This document shows, one piece after another, positions 25,850-56,974 of a stretch of 64,000 nt of DNA (positions are counted from its first letter, which is position 1; every line of letters starts with the position of its first letter). Origin of the DNA: Nitrospirota bacterium (GTDB taxonomy: Bacteria > Nitrospirota > UBA9217); contig CAVVUN010000011.1 in assembly GCA_963751455.1 (NCBI GenBank), forward strand, positions 1 through 64,000, in the 5' to 3' direction. The translations under genes and the position numbers were made by a program. The notes under the pieces are model-generated. The model made no database searches and was not told the origin of the DNA. It worked only from the letters and a program-made list of their open reading frames with translations.

Positions 25850-26366
25850 TAATCACGAAAAAATACTCACGATTAAGCTGCAGCTAGAAAAGGATTTAGA
25901 ACCTAAATGATTTGTCGCTAATGGCAGACGAGAACCGGTTGAAATAAGGACAAATGATAGAGCCAGTCTTAATGTTTTCTTAATATCGGACTTTGTTGAT
26001 CGACATTTTTCATGGAATAATGGAAGTCCGCTACATGCTTTATTGAGACAAGAAGACAATAGGGAATCATCAAAAGATATAACCGTAATAATTGATGCCT
26101 TGAGAGAAGCTAAATCGAAAATAGATTGCTGCTCTTTCGGACATTTGACTGGAATAATTGAAAGGATTAAGGATACTGCTTCGACTCTCGGAATCAATAT
26201 ATCAAATATTTCAACTACAATCGATTCTAGAGACATTCATGTGAAGGACGGCAAGATATGTTTACATGAAGATAAAATTCCGTTCAGGTTAAAAGGTAAA
26301 GGGTCCAAGAGATTAATATCAATTGCGATTCAAACGGAATTAGCGAAGTCCGGAGGCATTTTATTG
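25850..26366 (+). pseudogene. Internal fragment of an OLD-family/AAA ATP-dependent nuclease
   Basis: AT-rich; IPFRLKGKGSKRLISIAIQ (ABC-signature-like) then GGILL, cut where Walker B would be. Confidence 0.6.
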
Positions 26367-26373
26367 AGCCGCA

Positions 26374-26407
26374 TAAAACCCCCGGCTCCTGCCGGGGGAG
26401 GGTCATT
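26374..26407 (+). mobile_element. Orphan IS200/IS605-type end hairpin
   Basis: AAACCCCCGGCTCCTGCCGGGGGAGGGTCATT is nearly identical to the IS200 end at 40582-40611. Confidence 0.7.
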
Positions 26408-34468: not shown

Positions 34469-37400
34469 ATGATGCAGGCAAAGAGATTCCTGTCGGGAGC
34501 AGTGTTGTTTCTTATCCTCATCGTATTCGGCAATCAGTATATCGAGGCCCAAAGCATTCCATCTCCAACTCCTCTGACAAATAGCGGGCACGTGGAGACG
34601 GACACATTCGCCGGCAATGTTCACATCCCCAGCGGCAGAGTATTTTTTACCGAAACAGACCTGACTGTGGATTCTCCGGGCATCCCGCTAATCATAGAGC
34701 GAAGCTACAACAGCGTAATCTATCCGGGACCAGACCCTGCCCGGAGTTTTTACACGAAAAACCCGCTCGGAAAGGGTTGGACGCTTTCATTCTGGCTGCG
34801 CTTATTCGATGAGAGTGAAACGGTGACCCTGCTTGACAGTGAAGGAGAAATTTATGTTTTCACAAGGACCGAGAGCGGCGGCTATGTCGCGCCGCCGGGC
34901 TTCCCTGCGGTGCTTTCAAAAGAGAATGCCGGTTTCCAGCTCTTAACCAGTGAAAACCTCATATTCAGGTTTTCGACTGATGGCTACCTCCTTTCCATCA
35001 GCAACTTACGCGGCCTGAGTCTGTCTCTTTCTTATGATGAATCAAATCGGATCAAGGAGATTAGTGATACACTCAACAGGAAAACCTTTTTTACTTACCA
35101 GGATGAACTTTTAATCTCAATTCAATCTCCCGTGGGATTCATCGTATCCTATACGCACGATTCAGAAAAACGCCTGATTAAAAAGACCGACACATTCGGA
35201 AACACGGTCGAATATGAGTATGAATCTTTGACTTCTAAACTCGCTAAAATCACAACTGCCGCAAACACGGTCCAGTACCAGTATGACAGCGACGGCCGGG
35301 TGGTGAAAGAGCTATCGACATCCGGCAAGAACGACTTCACCTATTCGACAGAGCTGCATCAGACCAACCGGACCGATAACGCAGGCGGCCTAACCATCTA
35401 TACCTATAACGAAAACGGCCTGGTGACCCGCATTCAATCCCCAGACAGGTCTATTACGGAGTATACGTATGACGGAAACTACAACAGGACTTCCGTTATC
35501 AATCCGGATGGATCCGTTTCTCATAAACAATATGACGAAAACGGAAACGTTATTCAGGAAACGGACAGCACGGGTAAGACCACGACCTATACATACGATG
35601 CCTATCTCAATCTCGTATCGTCCATCAGATACTTTGACGGCCGGACGGAGACATTCGTGTACAACTCATACGGAGAGCTGGTGAGAAAAACAACTTCTGC
35701 CGGCACATCGACCTACACCTATAACGATTACGGCCAGCTTATAAACTATGAGGGACCGGACGGGAAAAGCGCCACCACATACGACGAAAATCAACGAGTA
35801 AAGACATACATGGGTACAGACAACGTTACCATGACTTATACGTACGATCAGTACGGCAGGGTGACCGCAGAAGCGGGGTCGGACGGAAGCAGTAGAGCGA
35901 TCACGTACGACGACCAGGGGAACCCGGTATCGGTCACCTACGAATGCGGGGCGAGCGAGAAGTTCGACTATGACGGAGCGGGAAGAGTGATTGCTGCGTA
36001 TGATCTCAACGGGAACAAAACGGAATATACGTACGACGACCAAGGGAATCTCTCGGTGATGAAAGACGCCCTCGGCTTCACCACGAAGTACACCTATGAC
36101 AGCCGGAACAATGTGAAGTCCGTCACGGATCCCCGCGGCAACACAACCACCTTATTGAACAATGACGCCGGTAAGCCGACATCGATCACCGACCCTCTTC
36201 AAAACGTTGTATCCCTGGCTTACGATCAGAGCAACAACATGACCGCCATTACAAACGCGAGAGGCCACAAAACGAAGATCACATATGACGCGAGCGCGAG
36301 AGTAACGAGCAGTGAGGACTCTGCGGGTGCAAAGACTATCTATACCTATGATTCGTATGACAACGTGACACGCGTTGAAAGGCCGAACGGCGGCGTTACG
36401 CAGTTTTTTTACGTGCACAACGAGGCATTCAACGACCTCAGGATCCCGGACATGCTGCTCGGAGCTATTCCTTTGGACAAGCTAAAGATCGACAAAAAGA
36501 GCAGAATCACAAAAATAATCGACGCTGAAAACAACATCGCGATATACACCTACGATGCCAAGGGCAACCTGATATCGTCAAAAGACGCTAAGGGCAACTT
36601 TTCTACCTATACGTATAACGACAAGAACCAGATGATCAAAGCGACTGATCCGCTTGGCCATTCCACTGCATTTCTGTATAATGATAAAGGAGACCAGTCA
36701 TCGGTGACCGATCCGAATGAAATGAGCACATCGATGACATATTTCTACTGCGGAACGGTAAAGCGGGTTGCGTCCATTGTAGACCCGCTCGGCCGTGAGA
36801 CGAAGTATCAGTACGACAAGATGGGCAACCTCCTTTCTGTGAAGCTGCCCGACGGAGCAACGACCACCTATGTTTATGATGCCGTATACAGGTTAATATC
36901 CCAAAAAGACTCAACGGGCGCCGGTACAACTTACGGTTATGATGAAGGAGGCAACCTGATTTCGGTAACCGACTCTCGGGGATACAAGACGACCTACGAA
37001 TACGACTACCTGGGCCGCGTGACGGTAATAAAAGATCCTCTCGGCAACATTACCAGTATTGGCCGCGACCAAGTGGGTAATATCAACCAGGTGACGAATG
37101 CACTCGGCGAGCAAACGACAAACCTGTACGATCAACTTAACCGCACGACCGAAGTGATTAACTCGCTCGGCCGGTCCTTCAAGTATGCCTACGATAATTC
37201 CGGGAACCTGTTATCCGTAACGGACCCAAAGGGGAATAAAAACGCCTATGGCTACGATAAACTGAACCGTCTCTTGAACATTACGAATGCCCTTAATCAG
37301 AACACGCATTTTGAATACGATGCCCTGGGAAACCGCGTTGAAGTCAGGGACGCCAAGGGCCTTTCCAAACACTATGTGTATGACTCCGCGAACAGGCTTG

Positions 37401-40198
37401 TCAAAATTAAGAATGCGAAGGGCGGAGAAACGACCCTTTTCTACGACAACATAGGGAATGCTATTAAGAGCATCGACCCGAACGGCAATTCTACTACGTT
37501 TAGCTATGATGCTCTAAACCGCGTGACTAGAAAGCAGGACGCTTTTGCCAACGCGGTCTCGTATACGTATAATGCAGCAGGAGCGGTGACGACAATCACC
37601 GATCCCAACGGGAACGGGACGCAGTATGAGTACGATTCCATGGGCAGGCTGACAGCGGTCATAGACGCTCTGGGAGAAAGGACCACCTACTCCTTCGACC
37701 CGGCGGGTAATCTCGTAAAGATATCGGACGCAAACGGGAACGCGACCGAATACGGCTATGATCCCCTGGGAAGAATTGCGCAGGAGCTGAAACCGCTCGG
37801 GAACAAAACACTGTACGAATATGACGCCATCGGAAGACTGGCCAAGGTTACGACGCCGAAGGGTGAAGCAATCGAATATGTCTATGATGCCGCGGGAAAC
37901 CTTATTACAAAGAAGCTGCCCCACGGCAACCATCTGCAGTTTACCCATGATGAACTGGGGAATACAATTTCCGCCCAAACGCCCTATTTCCGGGAAGAAA
38001 TGAAGTACGATCCGCTGGGACGGCTTACCAAGAGGCGTGTCACAACCTGGGACAAAACAACCGAGTATGCGTACGATCCGGTGGGAAACCTCACCCGCCT
38101 GACCGACCCGCTCGGCAATACGACCCATTATACTTATGACGAGATAGGGAAGGTTTCGGAGGTTACGGACGGACAGGGCAATAAGACTACTTTTGCCTAT
38201 GATGCCGGCAGCAGGCTTGCGCAAAAGACCTATCCGAACGGGGTCAGCACCCTGTACAAATGGGACGAGGCAAATCGGCTCATAACACTGATCGCCCAGT
38301 CACAGAGGTTCGGCCAGGTGAACGGCTACTCTTATCAATATGACAGCAGCGGCAACCGGATAGCGGCCATCGAGGACGACGGCATCGGAACAACCTACGA
38401 TTACGACGCATTAAACCGGCTCGTAAAAGTCAACTATGATTACGACAGTCTCATGAAAGTTCGAAACACCTGCCTGGTGCCGCCGTGCCCCAAGGGCAAT
38501 GCCTGGGGCGCGGGAGGAGTGGACACGTCCATCTTCCCGAACCTTGAAGATCCGCTCCATTATGAGAGTTTCACCTATGACAGCGTCGGCAACAGAGCAA
38601 GCCTGGAGCGTGATGGAGTTTCTGTATCTTATACCTTCGACAAGGCGAACAGGCTCCTGAACGCAAGCGGAAAAGGACAGCCAGTTACGTTCGAGTACGA
38701 TGAAAACGGCAATCTTGTAAAGGAAACCGGGCCGGACGGCGTGATCACGTACGCATACGATGCCGAAGGAAAGCTCACCGAGGTCGTTCTTCCCGACGGC
38801 ACCGGCATCAAGAATCTCTACGATGCTTTTGGGAGAAGGATCGTGACTGACGAAACCTACTGGCAGAACAAGAACCATGTTTTCTTCGACGAAACGAAGA
38901 TGCTGTACAGCGGCATGGGCTATTTGCCGGAAGCTCTGGGCAGGATGGGAGTGATAAATCCCTATCTGCCGGGATTATCCTCCGGGACATCGCCTATTGC
39001 GGGGCAGAATGTACTCATGGAGTTCACCGAGCAGGACAATCCGATGAATGCCTACATTTATGCGAATGGCGAAATCATATCCAAGCGCATGTGGGGCTTC
39101 AAGGGAAGAAAAGACCCCGGTGCAGTCGGAAATATAAGGCATCGGGGCAATACTCTTTACTACCATAGCGATGCCTTGGGAAGCGTCGTGGACATCACGG
39201 ACCACCTTGGGGAAAACATCATCAAGAACCGCTACCTTGCTTTCGGCGCGCCGGTTGCCGGTGACTTCGCTCCCTACGGCAGGTTCGGGTTCGCCGGCAT
39301 GCCGTTCGAGGAGAAAATAGGGAAATACTATGCCGGGAGCAGGTTCTATGACTACCAGGCGGGAAAGTTCCTGACTCCCGATTTTCATAAAGGCGGAATA
39401 CTCACGCCGGCCTCGCTGCACCAATACATCTACGTTTTGAATAACCCCGTAATGTATATTGATCCAATGGGCTACGGCCTTCGAAAGTGGGCCAAGCGGG
39501 CGGTTCGAAAAGTCACCCAAAAGATGGGCCAGCAGCTTGATAGAGGTTCCAGATGGGCGATGCGAAATGCAGTGAAAACCGTGCAAAGACTTCCTGACAA
39601 TGCCGTGGGCAGTGTATTTAAAGGTTTGTTTGGCGCAGTTTATTCCACGGCAGCGTTCGGAACAATGATTGTCATGGCGCCGGTCAGTGCATTGATTGAT
39701 CCGGCCTGGACGCAAAGCTACCTTCAACTGACGTACAATTTTACTCCGACCGGCCAGCTTCAGAACAAGCAACGAACAGGGGACTACGCAACGTTAGAGA
39801 TGTTTGAGGGAGCCCCCTATGTTCGGGACAGTCTTTGGGGAGGCGGCCGAGGCCATGGCACCACATGGGGACCAGTAGCGTTTATTGGGAGGACCGATCA
39901 TCTTACGTCGACACAAGAACTTGCCTTGCTTCGCCATGAATATGGGCATATACTGCAATATGAGGAGATGGGGGGCTGGCGCTACCAAAGGCAAGCGGAT
40001 GATGGTGGATATGAAATGGGTGCCTTTGAGTGGGGTGCGGATGTGGCGGCCACGGAATATTTCGATGTCGACGTGTGTGCATACCGACATGCATGCCATC
40101 CCAATGATCACTGTCACCGGATAGGATACATGTGCGTGAACGGCCAAGAACAATATTGTCCAAGTGGCGATTTAAGCAACTGCTTTGGGACGCCGTAA
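34469..40198 (+). CDS. RHS/YD-repeat protein with signal peptide and HExxH C-terminal domain
   Basis: RBS GGAGG, Sec signal, DUF6531-like RSYNS..LGKGW, many YD repeats, core end YVLNNPVMYIDPMG, tip LRHEYGHILQ. Confidence 0.92.
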   Translation: MMQAKRFLSGAVLFLILIVFGNQYIEAQSIPSPTPLTNSGHVETDTFAGNVHIPSGRVFFTETDLTVDSPGIPLIIERSYNSVIYPGPDPARSFYTKNPLGKGWTLSFWLRLFDESETVTLLDSEGEIYVFTRTESGGYVAPPGFPAVLSKENAGFQLLTSENLIFRFSTDGYLLSISNLRGLSLSLSYDESNRIKEISDTLNRKTFFTYQDELLISIQSPVGFIVSYTHDSEKRLIKKTDTFGNTVEYEYESLTSKLAKITTAANTVQYQYDSDGRVVKELSTSGKNDFTYSTELHQTNRTDNAGGLTIYTYNENGLVTRIQSPDRSITEYTYDGNYNRTSVINPDGSVSHKQYDENGNVIQETDSTGKTTTYTYDAYLNLVSSIRYFDGRTETFVYNSYGELVRKTTSAGTSTYTYNDYGQLINYEGPDGKSATTYDENQRVKTYMGTDNVTMTYTYDQYGRVTAEAGSDGSSRAITYDDQGNPVSVTYECGASEKFDYDGAGRVIAAYDLNGNKTEYTYDDQGNLSVMKDALGFTTKYTYDSRNNVKSVTDPRGNTTTLLNNDAGKPTSITDPLQNVVSLAYDQSNNMTAITNARGHKTKITYDASARVTSSEDSAGAKTIYTYDSYDNVTRVERPNGGVTQFFYVHNEAFNDLRIPDMLLGAIPLDKLKIDKKSRITKIIDAENNIAIYTYDAKGNLISSKDAKGNFSTYTYNDKNQMIKATDPLGHSTAFLYNDKGDQSSVTDPNEMSTSMTYFYCGTVKRVASIVDPLGRETKYQYDKMGNLLSVKLPDGATTTYVYDAVYRLISQKDSTGAGTTYGYDEGGNLISVTDSRGYKTTYEYDYLGRVTVIKDPLGNITSIGRDQVGNINQVTNALGEQTTNLYDQLNRTTEVINSLGRSFKYAYDNSGNLLSVTDPKGNKNAYGYDKLNRLLNITNALNQNTHFEYDALGNRVEVRDAKGLSKHYVYDSANRLVKIKNAKGGETTLFYDNIGNAIKSIDPNGNSTTFSYDALNRVTRKQDAFANAVSYTYNAAGAVTTITDPNGNGTQYEYDSMGRLTAVIDALGERTTYSFDPAGNLVKISDANGNATEYGYDPLGRIAQELKPLGNKTLYEYDAIGRLAKVTTPKGEAIEYVYDAAGNLITKKLPHGNHLQFTHDELGNTISAQTPYFREEMKYDPLGRLTKRRVTTWDKTTEYAYDPVGNLTRLTDPLGNTTHYTYDEIGKVSEVTDGQGNKTTFAYDAGSRLAQKTYPNGVSTLYKWDEANRLITLIAQSQRFGQVNGYSYQYDSSGNRIAAIEDDGIGTTYDYDALNRLVKVNYDYDSLMKVRNTCLVPPCPKGNAWGAGGVDTSIFPNLEDPLHYESFTYDSVGNRASLERDGVSVSYTFDKANRLLNASGKGQPVTFEYDENGNLVKETGPDGVITYAYDAEGKLTEVVLPDGTGIKNLYDAFGRRIVTDETYWQNKNHVFFDETKMLYSGMGYLPEALGRMGVINPYLPGLSSGTSPIAGQNVLMEFTEQDNPMNAYIYANGEIISKRMWGFKGRKDPGAVGNIRHRGNTLYYHSDALGSVVDITDHLGENIIKNRYLAFGAPVAGDFAPYGRFGFAGMPFEEKIGKYYAGSRFYDYQAGKFLTPDFHKGGILTPASLHQYIYVLNNPVMYIDPMGYGLRKWAKRAVRKVTQKMGQQLDRGSRWAMRNAVKTVQRLPDNAVGSVFKGLFGAVYSTAAFGTMIVMAPVSALIDPAWTQSYLQLTYNFTPTGQLQNKQRTGDYATLEMFEGAPYVRDSLWGGGRGHGTTWGPVAFIGRTDHLTSTQELALLRHEYGHILQYEEMGGWRYQRQADDGGYEMGAFEWGADVAATEYFDVDVCAYRHACHPNDHCHRIGYMCVNGQEQYCPSGDLSNCFGTP

Positions 40199-40611
40199 TA
40201 TAAAAGTTTTCAGTTAGATCATAGTGGAGCCCCCTCCGGCAGGAGCCGGAGGCTCCCCTGAACAACGCGACCTCCCAGCGGACTACGGCGCATTACCCCC
40301 GGCAAGAGCCGGGGGATTGCAAGTCGCGGGATTCACATGGTGACCGTTATACCGCCGAGAATTGCAGTTGCCGATGTTGTTCAGTTCATTAAGTCACAAT
40401 CGGCAAAAAACTTAAGGCGAAATTTCCTTTTCTGCGAAAAACATATGCGAGCAAAGAAGGCATTTGGTCGCGAGGATACTGTGTATCGTGTATCGGCCTG
40501 AACGAAAAGGAAATTCTCGCCTATGTCGCCTATCAAGAAAAGAAAGACAAAGGGCAACTGCAATTAACGTTGTGATTTAAGAAACCCCCGGCTCCTGCCG
40601 GGAGGGTCATT
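40199..40611 (+). mobile_element. tnpA: IS200/IS605 tnpA remnant with right-end hairpin
   Basis: QLDH|IHMVTVIPPRIAVADVVQFIKSQS...IWSRGYCVS...YVAYQ; hairpin CCCCCGGCTCCTGCCGGG at about 40585. Confidence 0.85.
40223..40330 (-). mobile_element. 108-bp non-autonomous IS200/IS605-type element, copy 1
   Basis: Reverse complement of 53168-53275; two GC-rich hairpins; removing it restores DHIHM. Confidence 0.88.
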
Positions 40612-40650: not shown

Positions 40651-42121
40651 CAGTAGTGTCTGGTTATCGTTTTTCTAATGTGCGATAACTCGCTGTCATT
40701 CAAAGATAAAAGAGACTGTATGCAACTTTTCGATTTGAACTTAATTTATCCAGAATCATCCTATAATCCACCTCATCTATGCATGAGGAGGGACGAAGAT
40801 GAATTCCGGAAAGACGGTTTTTGCTCAGCTGATCCAGCATCTACCACGGTACGAGTTCAACCAATGCGTCCTTCGTTATCACGGCAATCACAAAGTCAGA
40901 AGCTTTTCATGCATGGATCAGTTTCTCTGCATGGCATTTGCCCAGCTGACCTATCGCGAAAGCTTGCGCGATATTGTAACGTGTCTCAACTCCCATCGAC
41001 CAAAGCTTTACCACATGGGCTTTCGAGGGAAGGTCGCCAAATCCACGTTGGCGGACGCCAACGAGCTTCGAGACTTCCGCATCTATCAGGACTTCGGCTA
41101 TTTGCTCATCGACATCGCCAGCAAACTTTATCGGAACGAGGAGTTTGCCCGTATCCCATTTCGTCGATGAGGCAGCTAAATCAATCATTTGTTTTGTTGC
41201 CAATTTTTACCTCAAAAGGCGGGCAGTGGAAGCATCCCCGGTCAAGTGCAGAGCATATTATCTCTCTTGATAAGGCGAGGATACGAGGCCTCGACCTGAA
41301 GCTCTCGGTCTTTGCGCTGGACTCAACGATCATCGATCTTTGCCTTTCCACGTTCCCTTGGGCGACGTTTCGGAAAAAGAAAGCAGCCGTCAAGATTCAC
41401 ACTTTGCTCAACGTGCAGGGATCGATTCCAACCTTTATTTTCGTGACTCCCGGCAGCGTTCACGATGTCAATATGATGGATACTGTCCCGTTCGAAGCCG
41501 AATCGGTCTATACAATGGATCGCGCTTACCTCGACTTCGAGCGACTTTACCAAATCGATCAACTGTCCGCGTTCTTCGTTATCAAGAGCAAAAGCAATAC
41601 CCGGCTTCGTCGCGTCTACTCTGCTCCCGTGGACAAAGCCGACGGGGTGCAAGCCGATCAGACGGTTATGCTCATTGGCTACAAATCCCGCAAGGCTTAT
41701 CCAGATCCATTTCGTCGGGTGCGCTATTACGACACCGAACGAAACAAACGCTTGGTGGTTCTTACGAACAATTTCCTTATCCCGGCCAAAACAGTCGCGG
41801 ATATTTATCGCTCGCGTTGGCAGGTAGAGCTGTTCTTCAAGTGGATCAAGCAACACTTGCGGATCAAGTCGTTCTTCGGGACATCTCCGAATGCGGTCAA
41901 GATCCAAATCTGGATTGCCGTAAGCGTTTATCTCCTCGTGGCGATTGTCAAGAAGAGATTGAATCTGCCCGGCAGCCTCCACACAATTCTACAGATTTTG
42001 GAGGTCAACCTTTTTGATAAAATACCGATTTCTCAACTGGTTGAAGACACTATCAATCACGAAAACGAATATCGCGACGATAATCAATTGAATCTATTTA
42101 CGTAACAACCGGACACTACTG
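40651..42121 (+). mobile_element. IS4 family element (DUF4372-type DDE transposase 40799-42105, disrupted)
   Basis: TIR CAGTAGTGTC(T/C)GGTT; 9-bp TSD ATTTCCTTT (40642-40650 and 42122-42130); ALDST, MDRAY and YRSRWQVELFFKWIKQ motifs. Confidence 0.95.
41148..41287. mobile_element. 140-bp MITE-like insertion in the IS4 transposase
   Basis: Ends CCCGTATCC / GGATACGAG; removing it fuses the two ORFs as NEEFGLDLKLSVFALDST. Confidence 0.75.
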
Positions 42122-42157
42122 ATTTCCTTTATATTGGTGCTTTTAAGGAGGCGCGAT

Positions 42158-42544
42158 ATGCTCGGGCAAATCTTAACAAAAAAACAGATGTATTCTCTTT
42201 GCCTAATTGTATTTGCCTTGCTGTTGCTTACGAGTTGTAAAGGTGCTACGGATTGCTCAAAGAGGATGACTGTTGAAGGGGTTGTTGCTGATTCAAGCAC
42301 ATCACAGCCGTTAAGCGGCGTAAATATCTTTAGTCAAGATGTTGATGTTCGAGACATTACAGGTGAGGATGGGACATACAGCTTTACGGATTGGACCCTC
42401 GGAGGTTTTGTTGGCGATGTAGTTCGATATGAGAAAACCGGTTACCAGACGGCATATTCGGAGCCGGTTACCCAAGAGGAAACAGGATTTGATAGTTGCG
42501 GTGATTTTAGCATTACACGAAACGTAGCGATGATACCGCAATAA
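42158..42544 (+). CDS. Lipoprotein with carboxypeptidase-regulatory-like domain
   Basis: RBS AGGAGG, LLTSC lipobox, VEGVVADSSTSQPLSGVNI...TGEDGTY..KTGY. Confidence 0.75.
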   Translation: MLGQILTKKQMYSLCLIVFALLLLTSCKGATDCSKRMTVEGVVADSSTSQPLSGVNIFSQDVDVRDITGEDGTYSFTDWTLGGFVGDVVRYEKTGYQTAYSEPVTQEETGFDSCGDFSITRNVAMIPQ

Positions 42545-52726: not shown

Positions 52727-53296
52727 GTGCACATTAAAAGATTCCGACATATCGCCCTTGTGACTGGCGATTTGGACAAAATGATTAATTTTTACACTCA
52801 CGTGCTGGGTTTTGAGGTGAAACGCCGTTTTGAAATTAAGAGCGGAGATTTTCAAAAGGGGATTGGTGTTGTCGGAGCCGAGGCCAAAGGAGCCCATTTG
52901 GCTATTCCAAACTCCAATGTGGAAATGGAACTATTCCAGTTTACCAACCCTTTGCTCCATACCACTGGTTCTTCTTTGCCGGCGAATCACCCGGGATATC
53001 GTCACATTGCGCTGATCGTGAGCAACCTGCATGAAGCATATCTGGAACTTAAGAACAAAGGTGTTGTATTTCTGTCAGAGCCCGTCATTGTGAAGGAGCC
53101 TAAGGAAGTGGCAGGGTTCCAATTTGTATATTTCCGGGATTCCGAGGGGAACATCATCGAATTGAATCCCGCGACTTGCAATCCCCCGGCTCTTGCCGGG
53201 GGTAATGCGCCGTAGTCCGCTGGGAGGTCGCGTTGTTCAGGGGAGCCTCCGGCTCCTGCCGGAGGGGGCTCCACTCAACTGCCGGAATGGGCCTAA
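52727..53296 (+). CDS. VOC/glyoxalase family protein, 3' end interrupted by the 108-bp element
   Basis: RHIAL twice, YFRDSEGNIIEL; original end ELNQLPEWA* restored by removing 53168-53275 (current stop at 53215). Confidence 0.85.
53168..53275 (+). mobile_element. 108-bp non-autonomous IS200/IS605-type element, copy 2
   Basis: Inverted copy of 40223-40330; preceded by TGAAT; no TSD. Confidence 0.88.
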
Positions 53297-56883: not shown

Positions 56884-56974
56884 CAATCGATCCCGCGACC
56901 TGGAATCGCCCGGCTCCCGCCGGGGAAGAAAATCGCAATAAGGGGAACCGTCATCACCTGGATCATCACGTACA

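Follow-up and report, generated by a model that had tools for sequence, protein, structure and literature searches.

The locus examined here raises the question of whether a mobile element lying in the catalytic codons of a transposase gene has switched off its own helper, or whether it came to rest in a gene that was already failing. In the window (the whole 64,000-nt stretch of DNA that was analysed), the sequence and its open reading frames reveal an insert that interrupts an IS200 tnpA gene within its H-I-H codons. A preliminary description had placed 108 bases, 40223-40330, between the Gln-Leu-Asp-His and Ile-His-Met codons, and uninterrupted natural alleles confirm this join. Contigs from runs X1-X4 (four samples, one study) align to 40331-40602 with two differing letters and one gap; for X2, X3 and X4 the loose end listed extends upstream through the QLDH codons without the insert. 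An uninterrupted allele, ~99% alike, is present in soil metagenomes (runs X1-X4).

The insert carries two GC-rich hairpins that are direct repeats of each other, with palindromes near both termini. It folded better than its shuffles (z -5.0 and -4.8; 0/200 shuffles as good, on either strand). Both hairpins are inverted relative to the tnpA right-end hairpin at 40585, so that the insert runs antisense to tnpA, on the minus strand; the resemblance between these hairpins that the preliminary description had pointed out was indeed found, though on the opposite strand. None of the 24 inverted pairs listed joins the two insert ends, indicating that there are no terminal inverted repeats, and the insert is a non-autonomous IS200/IS605-type element (PATE). 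A classical MITE was considered and rejected, as the insert has neither terminal inverted repeats nor a target duplication. The single Rfam match (E 0.82) was below threshold. The proposed bounds were shifted by one base: the crossed guide rule described below holds only in the register TGAA^T, so that the element is best drawn as 40224-40331 instead of 40223-40330, which leaves the empty site unchanged. A 109-base element with both flanking Ts is ruled out by empty sites. The parts of the element, its target and its twin in the window are as follows.

40224..40331, minus strand: 108-nt non-autonomous IS200/IS605-type element (PATE), of which the genome has 37 two-ended copies; drawing it as 40223-40330 is equivalent
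40332..40335, minus strand: target tetranucleotide TGAA, lying antisense within the Ile-His codons; the +1 T that is preferred is now at 40223
40316..40319, minus strand: left-end guide CAAT, predicted to select TGAA by crossed pairing; it covaries with the target across copies
40296..40315, minus strand: left-end hairpin, 20 nt, 19/20 identical to the hairpin of the intact host IS
40253..40256, minus strand: right-end guide GGAG, which is predicted to pair with the terminal CCAC; nearly invariant, and fitting the IS608 rule by inspection
40233..40252, minus strand: right-end hairpin, 20 nt, from repeat and folding analysis
40224..40227, minus strand: right cleavage site CCAC, the last four bases of the element; 35/37 copies end so, partly through the search pattern
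53167..53274, plus strand: second PATE copy, a twin with 0 differences, lying in the final codons of a glyoxalase/VOC gene

The PATE belongs to a multicopy family. The genome holds 37 two-ended copies of 43-195 nt, and 79 more were found in 75 of 89 public loci, both being counts that demanded two ends and left out diverged or one-ended copies; the main length class is 105-113 nt. A lone left end with the guide GAAT lies at 56891-56925, with no right end nearby. With one mismatch allowed, a 16-base right-end pattern occurred in 31/63 other genomes of the bacterial family and in 41/301 from a second order; single matches near the control level make up many of these. Among the first 80 of at least 106 loci, the titles of PATE-bearing records name Nitrospirota, Syntrophaceae, Smithella and Deltaproteobacteria, and the PATE family has been kept across many genera. 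Besides the identical twin, three further copies on three contigs are mutually identical, and such copies point to recent spread. In the glyoxalase/VOC-family gene that holds the twin (52727-53292), an in-frame stop supplied by the twin alters the C-terminus.

Insertion occurs without target duplication, as revealed by two paralogous empty sites with a gap of 0; a third pair, with partial flank matches, gave a gap of 8. The intact tnpA allele likewise shows no gain or loss at the insert junction. Single-hairpin forms of 43-47 nt account for 7 of the 37 own copies (43-45 nt) and 12 of the 79 public ones, and they keep the guide-target match. Their differing crossover points favour deletion in place, with mobility as a possibility. 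Such forms were seen at G000 C8, C9, C12 and C15, and in L091, L105, L128 and others. PATEs are too short for a transposase, and TnpA queries found no match within the PATE ends of 80 public loci, and thus no autonomous parent there.

The strand with G>C marks the lagging-strand template. With GC skew as the strand proxy, the replication origin being unmapped, the PATE top strand is the G>C strand in 30/37 copies when 50-kb half-windows are used (p 2e-4) and in 26/37 with 25 kb (p 0.02). By this proxy the PATE top strand lies on the lagging-strand template, and the window copy is in the minority. The bias mirrors the one described for the IS200/IS605 family in the available text of PMC5027513.

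The four bases 5' of the left hairpin occur as four main alleles, and the flanking target varies accordingly. In this genome CAAT goes with TGAA in 14/15 copies, GCAT with GCAA in 8/14 and GAAT with TCAA in 4/8; the corresponding counts in public loci are 20/28, 9/19 and 21/25, joined there by AAAT with TTAA (4/6). Under the IS608 rule, guide base 1 pairs with target -3 and guide base 2 with target -4 (PMC5934647, in the part available). Such crossed pairing at target -4/-3 holds for 29/37 copies in this genome (permutation mean 11.3, 0/20000) and for 60/79 public ones (permutation mean 18.6; within-assembly mean 54.5, 33/20000), and a register scan gave at most 5/37 crossed pairings in any other register. 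The proposed target TGAAT is borne out: it precedes 14 of the 15 copies with this guide, so that the other copies do show the preference, and at the present site it is the reverse complement of the Ile-His codons. The remaining 22 of 37 copies carry guides other than CAAT. The right guide GGAG and the terminal CCAC would suit the pairing rule, both being hardly variable and fixed by the search patterns. A T follows the right end in 36/37 own copies and in most public loci, where it is fixed by the pattern. The same +1 T preference is common to related IS200 elements (7/9 and 13/13), and a +1 base preference is known for IS608 and ISDra2 (PMC5934647, available part). It may act through pairing with guide position 3, as in ISDra2, or reflect a protein preference; the latter is as likely, because a related IS200 that carries T at this guide position likewise shows +1 T (13/13).

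Taken by itself the family is of a known type, and its main interest is the natural four-guide series. In the accessible sections of the description of Haloquadratum walsbyi PATEs (Dyall-Smith et al. 2011, PMC3119063), the elements likewise have no terminal inverted repeats, no target duplication and no gene, bear near-terminal palindromes related to IS200/IS605 ends, include core-deleted forms with one hairpin (52 nt, against 43-47 nt in the present family) and nest into IS605-type elements. Unlike them, the present family is bacterial, from two phyla by the record titles of the first 80 of at least 106 loci, is shorter (105-113 nt in the main class) and combines several guide alleles with matching targets in one family. 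As in IS608 and ISDra2 (PMC3201880, PMC5934647, both as far as available), there is a guide tetranucleotide 5' of each hairpin with crossed pairing at -4/-3, the target lies outside the left end, the cut site lies inside the right end and there is a +1 preference; unlike these elements, the insert has no tnpA or tnpB, and its +1 base is T. Retargeting by guide change, which according to the same sources was engineered for IS608, is represented here by natural alleles. A further parallel comes from Geobacillus stearothermophilus, where the available portion of PMC10055086 describes PATE-like elements and ISGst1-5: gene-less elements, like the present ones, whose ends match those of a family moved in trans by one TnpA, with clade-specific target motifs and covarying guides. 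There, the helper tnpA was identified and tested, whereas here we have only candidate helpers, and no TnpB or IscB relative was found. The series offers a natural test set for DNA-guided targeting, with one 108-nt scaffold, four guide alleles beside predicted targets and >100 insertions in two phyla. Given a helper, it would also serve as minimal cargo in single-strand transposition. Our literature search, in which ISfinder and most subscription papers were outside scope, returned no report of this PATE family or of a loop with the target in HUH.

The interrupted tnpA is a relic, a point that the preliminary description had overlooked, having no left end and no start codon, with ~50 codons lost and a frameshift. 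The remains of the host IS200 in the window are the following.

40205..40223, plus strand: 5' stub of the IS200 tnpA relic, whose last codon is the first His of HUH; the left end is absent, as are the start codon and ~50 codons
40332..40575, plus strand: 3' part of the relic, with a 1-base frameshift near 40404 and its stop at 40573-40575
40581..40610, plus strand: right end of the host IS200, with guide GAAA, a hairpin short of 2 bases and the cleavage site TCAT
26365..26406, plus strand: 42-nt fusion of the host IS200 left and right ends, with a single hairpin and the core deleted, standing after its target TTAT

Only 14-28 bases of tnpA remain between the RHS stop codon and the insert. The sequence 3' of the insert aligns to Pfam Y1_Tnp, starting at profile position 53 (E 1e-4; at 22.8 bits narrowly short of the 23-bit cut-off), and a match in another frame of the relic covers profile positions 88-121 (E 0.02). 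The relic is ~99% identical to the run contigs and carries a substitution at 40543 that is absent from them. This genome's own copy of the host IS200 thus has neither an intact reading frame nor an intact left end. Two relic indels in 281 nt compare with 0.33 gap openings per kb in assembly repeats (P 0.004); assembly error is an unlikely source of the frameshift and cannot explain the 5' loss. The absence of any change between the PATE twins (P 0.21 for one copy, 0.046 for both) weakly suggests that the PATE arrived after relic decay began, and the order of lesions is weakly constrained.

Genome searches found intact or near-intact relatives of the host IS200, the intact ones in L042 (G049) and in runs X1-X4. 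L042 encodes a 142-residue Y1_Tnp protein (E 4e-27) in a tnpA-only element of ~545 nt with hairpin ends. Its hairpins equal the common PATE hairpin at 20/20 bases, but it has the guides AAAA and (G/A)AAA, the target TTAT and the end TCAT. Only L042 bases 271-551 (the relic, 90% identity over 281 nt) and the 42-nt end fusion match this genome, the fusion being a core deletion between direct-repeat hairpins. The hairpin is shared between the host IS200 (L042, runs X1-X4) and the PATE; elsewhere they have no similarity. Because the host guides and target differ and the two are unrelated outside the hairpin, the PATE is not a deletion derivative of the host IS. The suggestion that the insert is related to the gene it interrupts consequently holds for the hairpin but not beyond, the intact host IS having a different target of its own, TTAT.

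It is likely that the locus is an ordinary nested PATE insertion at TGAA^T in a decaying IS200 relic, moved in trans by a Y1 transposase. By analogy with work on IS608 and ISDra2, the movement would be of the peel-and-paste type, and the tetranucleotide 5' of each hairpin would determine where the cuts fall: the transposase would peel off the PATE top strand and paste it at TGAA^T in the relic. The relic may already have been dead when the PATE arrived, and a PATE in such neutral DNA would be harmless and so could persist. That the hit fell on the HUH codons is explained by the TGAAT they contain, the only one left in the surviving 3' part, and a feedback role need not be invoked. Such nesting has precedents: 192 events among mobile elements are documented in Haloquadratum, 12 of them PATE into IS605-type (PMC3119063, Table 5, within the part available), and the IS4-type element beside the relic is interrupted as well.

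For the hit to fall on an IS that shares the hairpin is a non-trivial coincidence. The genome contains 12757 TGAAT sites, one of them in the 3' relic, and the expected number of hits in the relic is 0.003 with uniform site use, or ~0.01 with a 3-fold excess outside long frames (24/37 PATE copies vs 2649/12757 TGAAT sites lie there). The catalytic position adds no further surprise, because HUH is the only site for a CAAT-guided copy in the relic, and the single HUH case was picked after the fact from very many windows. The prior odds of ~0.3-1% for hitting this relic would nevertheless be eased if the TnpA of this clade preferred DNA with the same hairpin, through fork stalling or binding of resident TnpA, a possible but unlikely reading in which PATEs and hairpin-sharing IS200 elements disrupt each other above chance and the HUH case is one outcome. 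Reverse nesting fits this idea. In G402, one copy of a host-IS relative has entered a PATE, at TTAT of the PATE spacer (L197), and another abuts a broken PATE right end (L195); these are one clear and one probable case, together 2/9 copies of the host-IS relative, in a genome with 63 PATE right-end matches in 3.5 Mb, and the L197 insertion was made at a non-preferred +1 base (A in 2/9). Haloquadratum elements, too, preferentially hit PATEs and IS605-type elements (PMC3119063, within the part available). However, only this genome and G402 contribute, both cases having been recognised post hoc; survival in neutral DNA would leave an identical pattern; the site hit in the window stands ~250 nt away from the hairpin, on the opposite strand; and no PATE was found inside any other IS200 or Y1 gene among the loci fetched. 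Separately, 7/9 copies of the host-IS relative in G402 were flagged with an internal stop codon.

An extension of the hairpin preference is that the IS200 clade and the four-guide PATE family insert into one another preferentially and thereby exert mutual negative feedback, the PATE disabling a borrowed transposase via HUH, which in this allele is the one site readable by the CAAT guide, and the transposase gene disabling the PATE via the spacer TTAT; we consider this decidedly unlikely. If either a nesting bias or a helper knock-out were true, it would provide a concrete mechanism of copy-number control for IS200/IS605 elements. No copy-number control of this group by nesting bias or helper knock-out was described in the literature searched, with ISfinder and subscription papers outside scope.

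The preliminary description had proposed a self-limiting loop, in which the host IS200 supplies the PATE transposase and the target encoded in HUH lets the PATE switch off its own helper. Such a loop now appears very improbable, even though several of its premises have substance. The 20/20 hairpin shared by the intact host IS and common PATEs makes cross-mobilisation by the host TnpA plausible on sequence grounds: TnpA reads hairpins and DNA guides choose sites (PMC3201880), and GstTnpA accepted the IS608 guide and target (PMC10055086), each as given in the available part of the source. A live allele with the target in HUH exists in nature, the HUH site being the only TGAAT of its 3' half, and an intact copy of the host IS is absent from this genome. 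However, the loop is built on one insertion, and the gene concerned has three lesions besides. The antisense HUH codons do spell TGAAT in this allele, as had been claimed, but this feature is allele-specific: ATT-CA at HUH was found in 0/18 loci at >=76% identity, which have Val codons, in 0/3 further close loci and in 4/62 IS200 loci overall, with multicopy sets uncollapsed. In addition, 22 of the 37 PATE copies have other guides, and the five other IS200 tnpA genes in this genome have open frames and an intact HUH. In all nine IS200 pieces checked (9/9), the top strand is the G>C strand. With both elements' top strands on the G>C strand, an antisense target lies on the disfavoured strand, which is used in ~1/5 of PATE cases; the window copy is one of these, at a local skew of 0.015.

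Recurrence of the insertion in related genomes, which the loop would lead one to expect, was not seen. A junction scan of 400 other genomes of the phylum, requiring an exact right end, gave one other match, outside any tnpA. A metagenome junction scan gave five matches, all by chance and none a PATE, a weak negative as no true PATE was returned. In 8 runs no listed contig bridges the junction, although four of the runs hold both the PATE and the intact allele; these runs contain 7-15% of the words, none spans the RHS side, and contigs drop rare variants. No PATE at the HUH of another tnpA was found in 89 public loci or the Y1 loci fetched. Two Y1 fragments ending at HUH (L307, L308) proved to be truncations without a PATE.

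The distribution of the two elements also argues against the loop. The host IS is absent from 15/15 PATE-rich genomes of the bacterial family and from 8/8 in the second order, these genomes being mostly incomplete and IS elements often unassembled. The four other family genomes with the host IS have 0, 0, 0 and 1 PATE ends (Fisher p 0.56), and in the second order PATE ends occur in 0/2 genomes with the host IS and the host IS in 0/8 PATE-rich ones (p 1.0), so that six genomes with the host IS carry 0-1 PATE ends. Only this genome and G402 hold both. Taken together, a host IS with other guides and the target TTAT, a gene broken independently and no tendency to co-occur leave the term 'own helper' unsuited to this gene, and with ATT-CA missing from the close loci and the insertion not recurring, the loop itself is not sustained.

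Searches for an autonomous parent and for a helper found neither. A pattern for a 540-600-nt parent matched 6/64 and 18/301 genomes, about the level of the reversed control, and 0/25 loci had a tnpA; viral contigs and plasmids gave no match. Y1 searches in 10 + 5 + 10 genome slots (some repeated) found no transposase common to PATE-rich genomes. IS200 tnpA was found in 0/5 PATE-rich genomes at E 1e-15, with weaker Y1 matches present, and G077 (one contig, 98% complete, 10 PATE ends) and G660 gave no Y1 match.

The tetranucleotide GGAG at the hairpin foot recalls some REP classes, whose copies flank a RAYT gene. Least probable among the readings considered is that the insert is a REP/REPIN-like repeat spread by a RAYT-like Y1 protein instead of IS200 TnpA: PATE-rich genomes often have weaker Y1 matches and no IS200 tnpA, and the family has persisted over many genera, but the insert hairpins are direct where the two REPs of a REPIN are inverted (PMC3337134, available part), the ends are distinct, the four-base target covaries with the guide, no true copy lies within 1.5-2.5 kb of 26 non-IS200 Y1 matches in this genome, and the lack of any Y1 match in G077 and G660 fits lost helpers of any kind. 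One 45-nt PATE copy lies ~0.7 kb from a non-IS200 Y1 gene in L283.

Several observations on Y1 genes were made alongside. Two sequences may hint at where the PATE left end came from, or at its helper: G000 C15:1343442, a core-deleted relic of another IS200, and the tnpA left end in L278 (G079). In both, nine bases through the CAAT guide equal the PATE left end, and the G000 relic sits after TGAA. Another IS200 family has three copies at G000 C9:69362-71033 and C14:3985, one intact, one split by a 1-kb IS and one with the second HUH His changed to Tyr. Over 26 loci, G000 also has many RAYT-like Y1 genes of 180-470 residues, some in tandem and none flanked by this PATE.

The RHS-repeat gene at 34469-40198 (1909 residues) ends at the relic truncation point, and the IS200 relic and an IS4-type element stand between it and a small lipoprotein-like ORF at 42134-42544, which as a guess might be the immunity partner of the RHS gene. 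The IS4-type element (40701-42110), the neighbour of the relic, is also interrupted. Its transposase gene contains a 140-nt insert at 41148-41287, which ends in imperfect inverted repeats of 9 nt and shows no clear duplication; this insert is single-copy, and two uninterrupted copies of the IS lie on C1 and C9.
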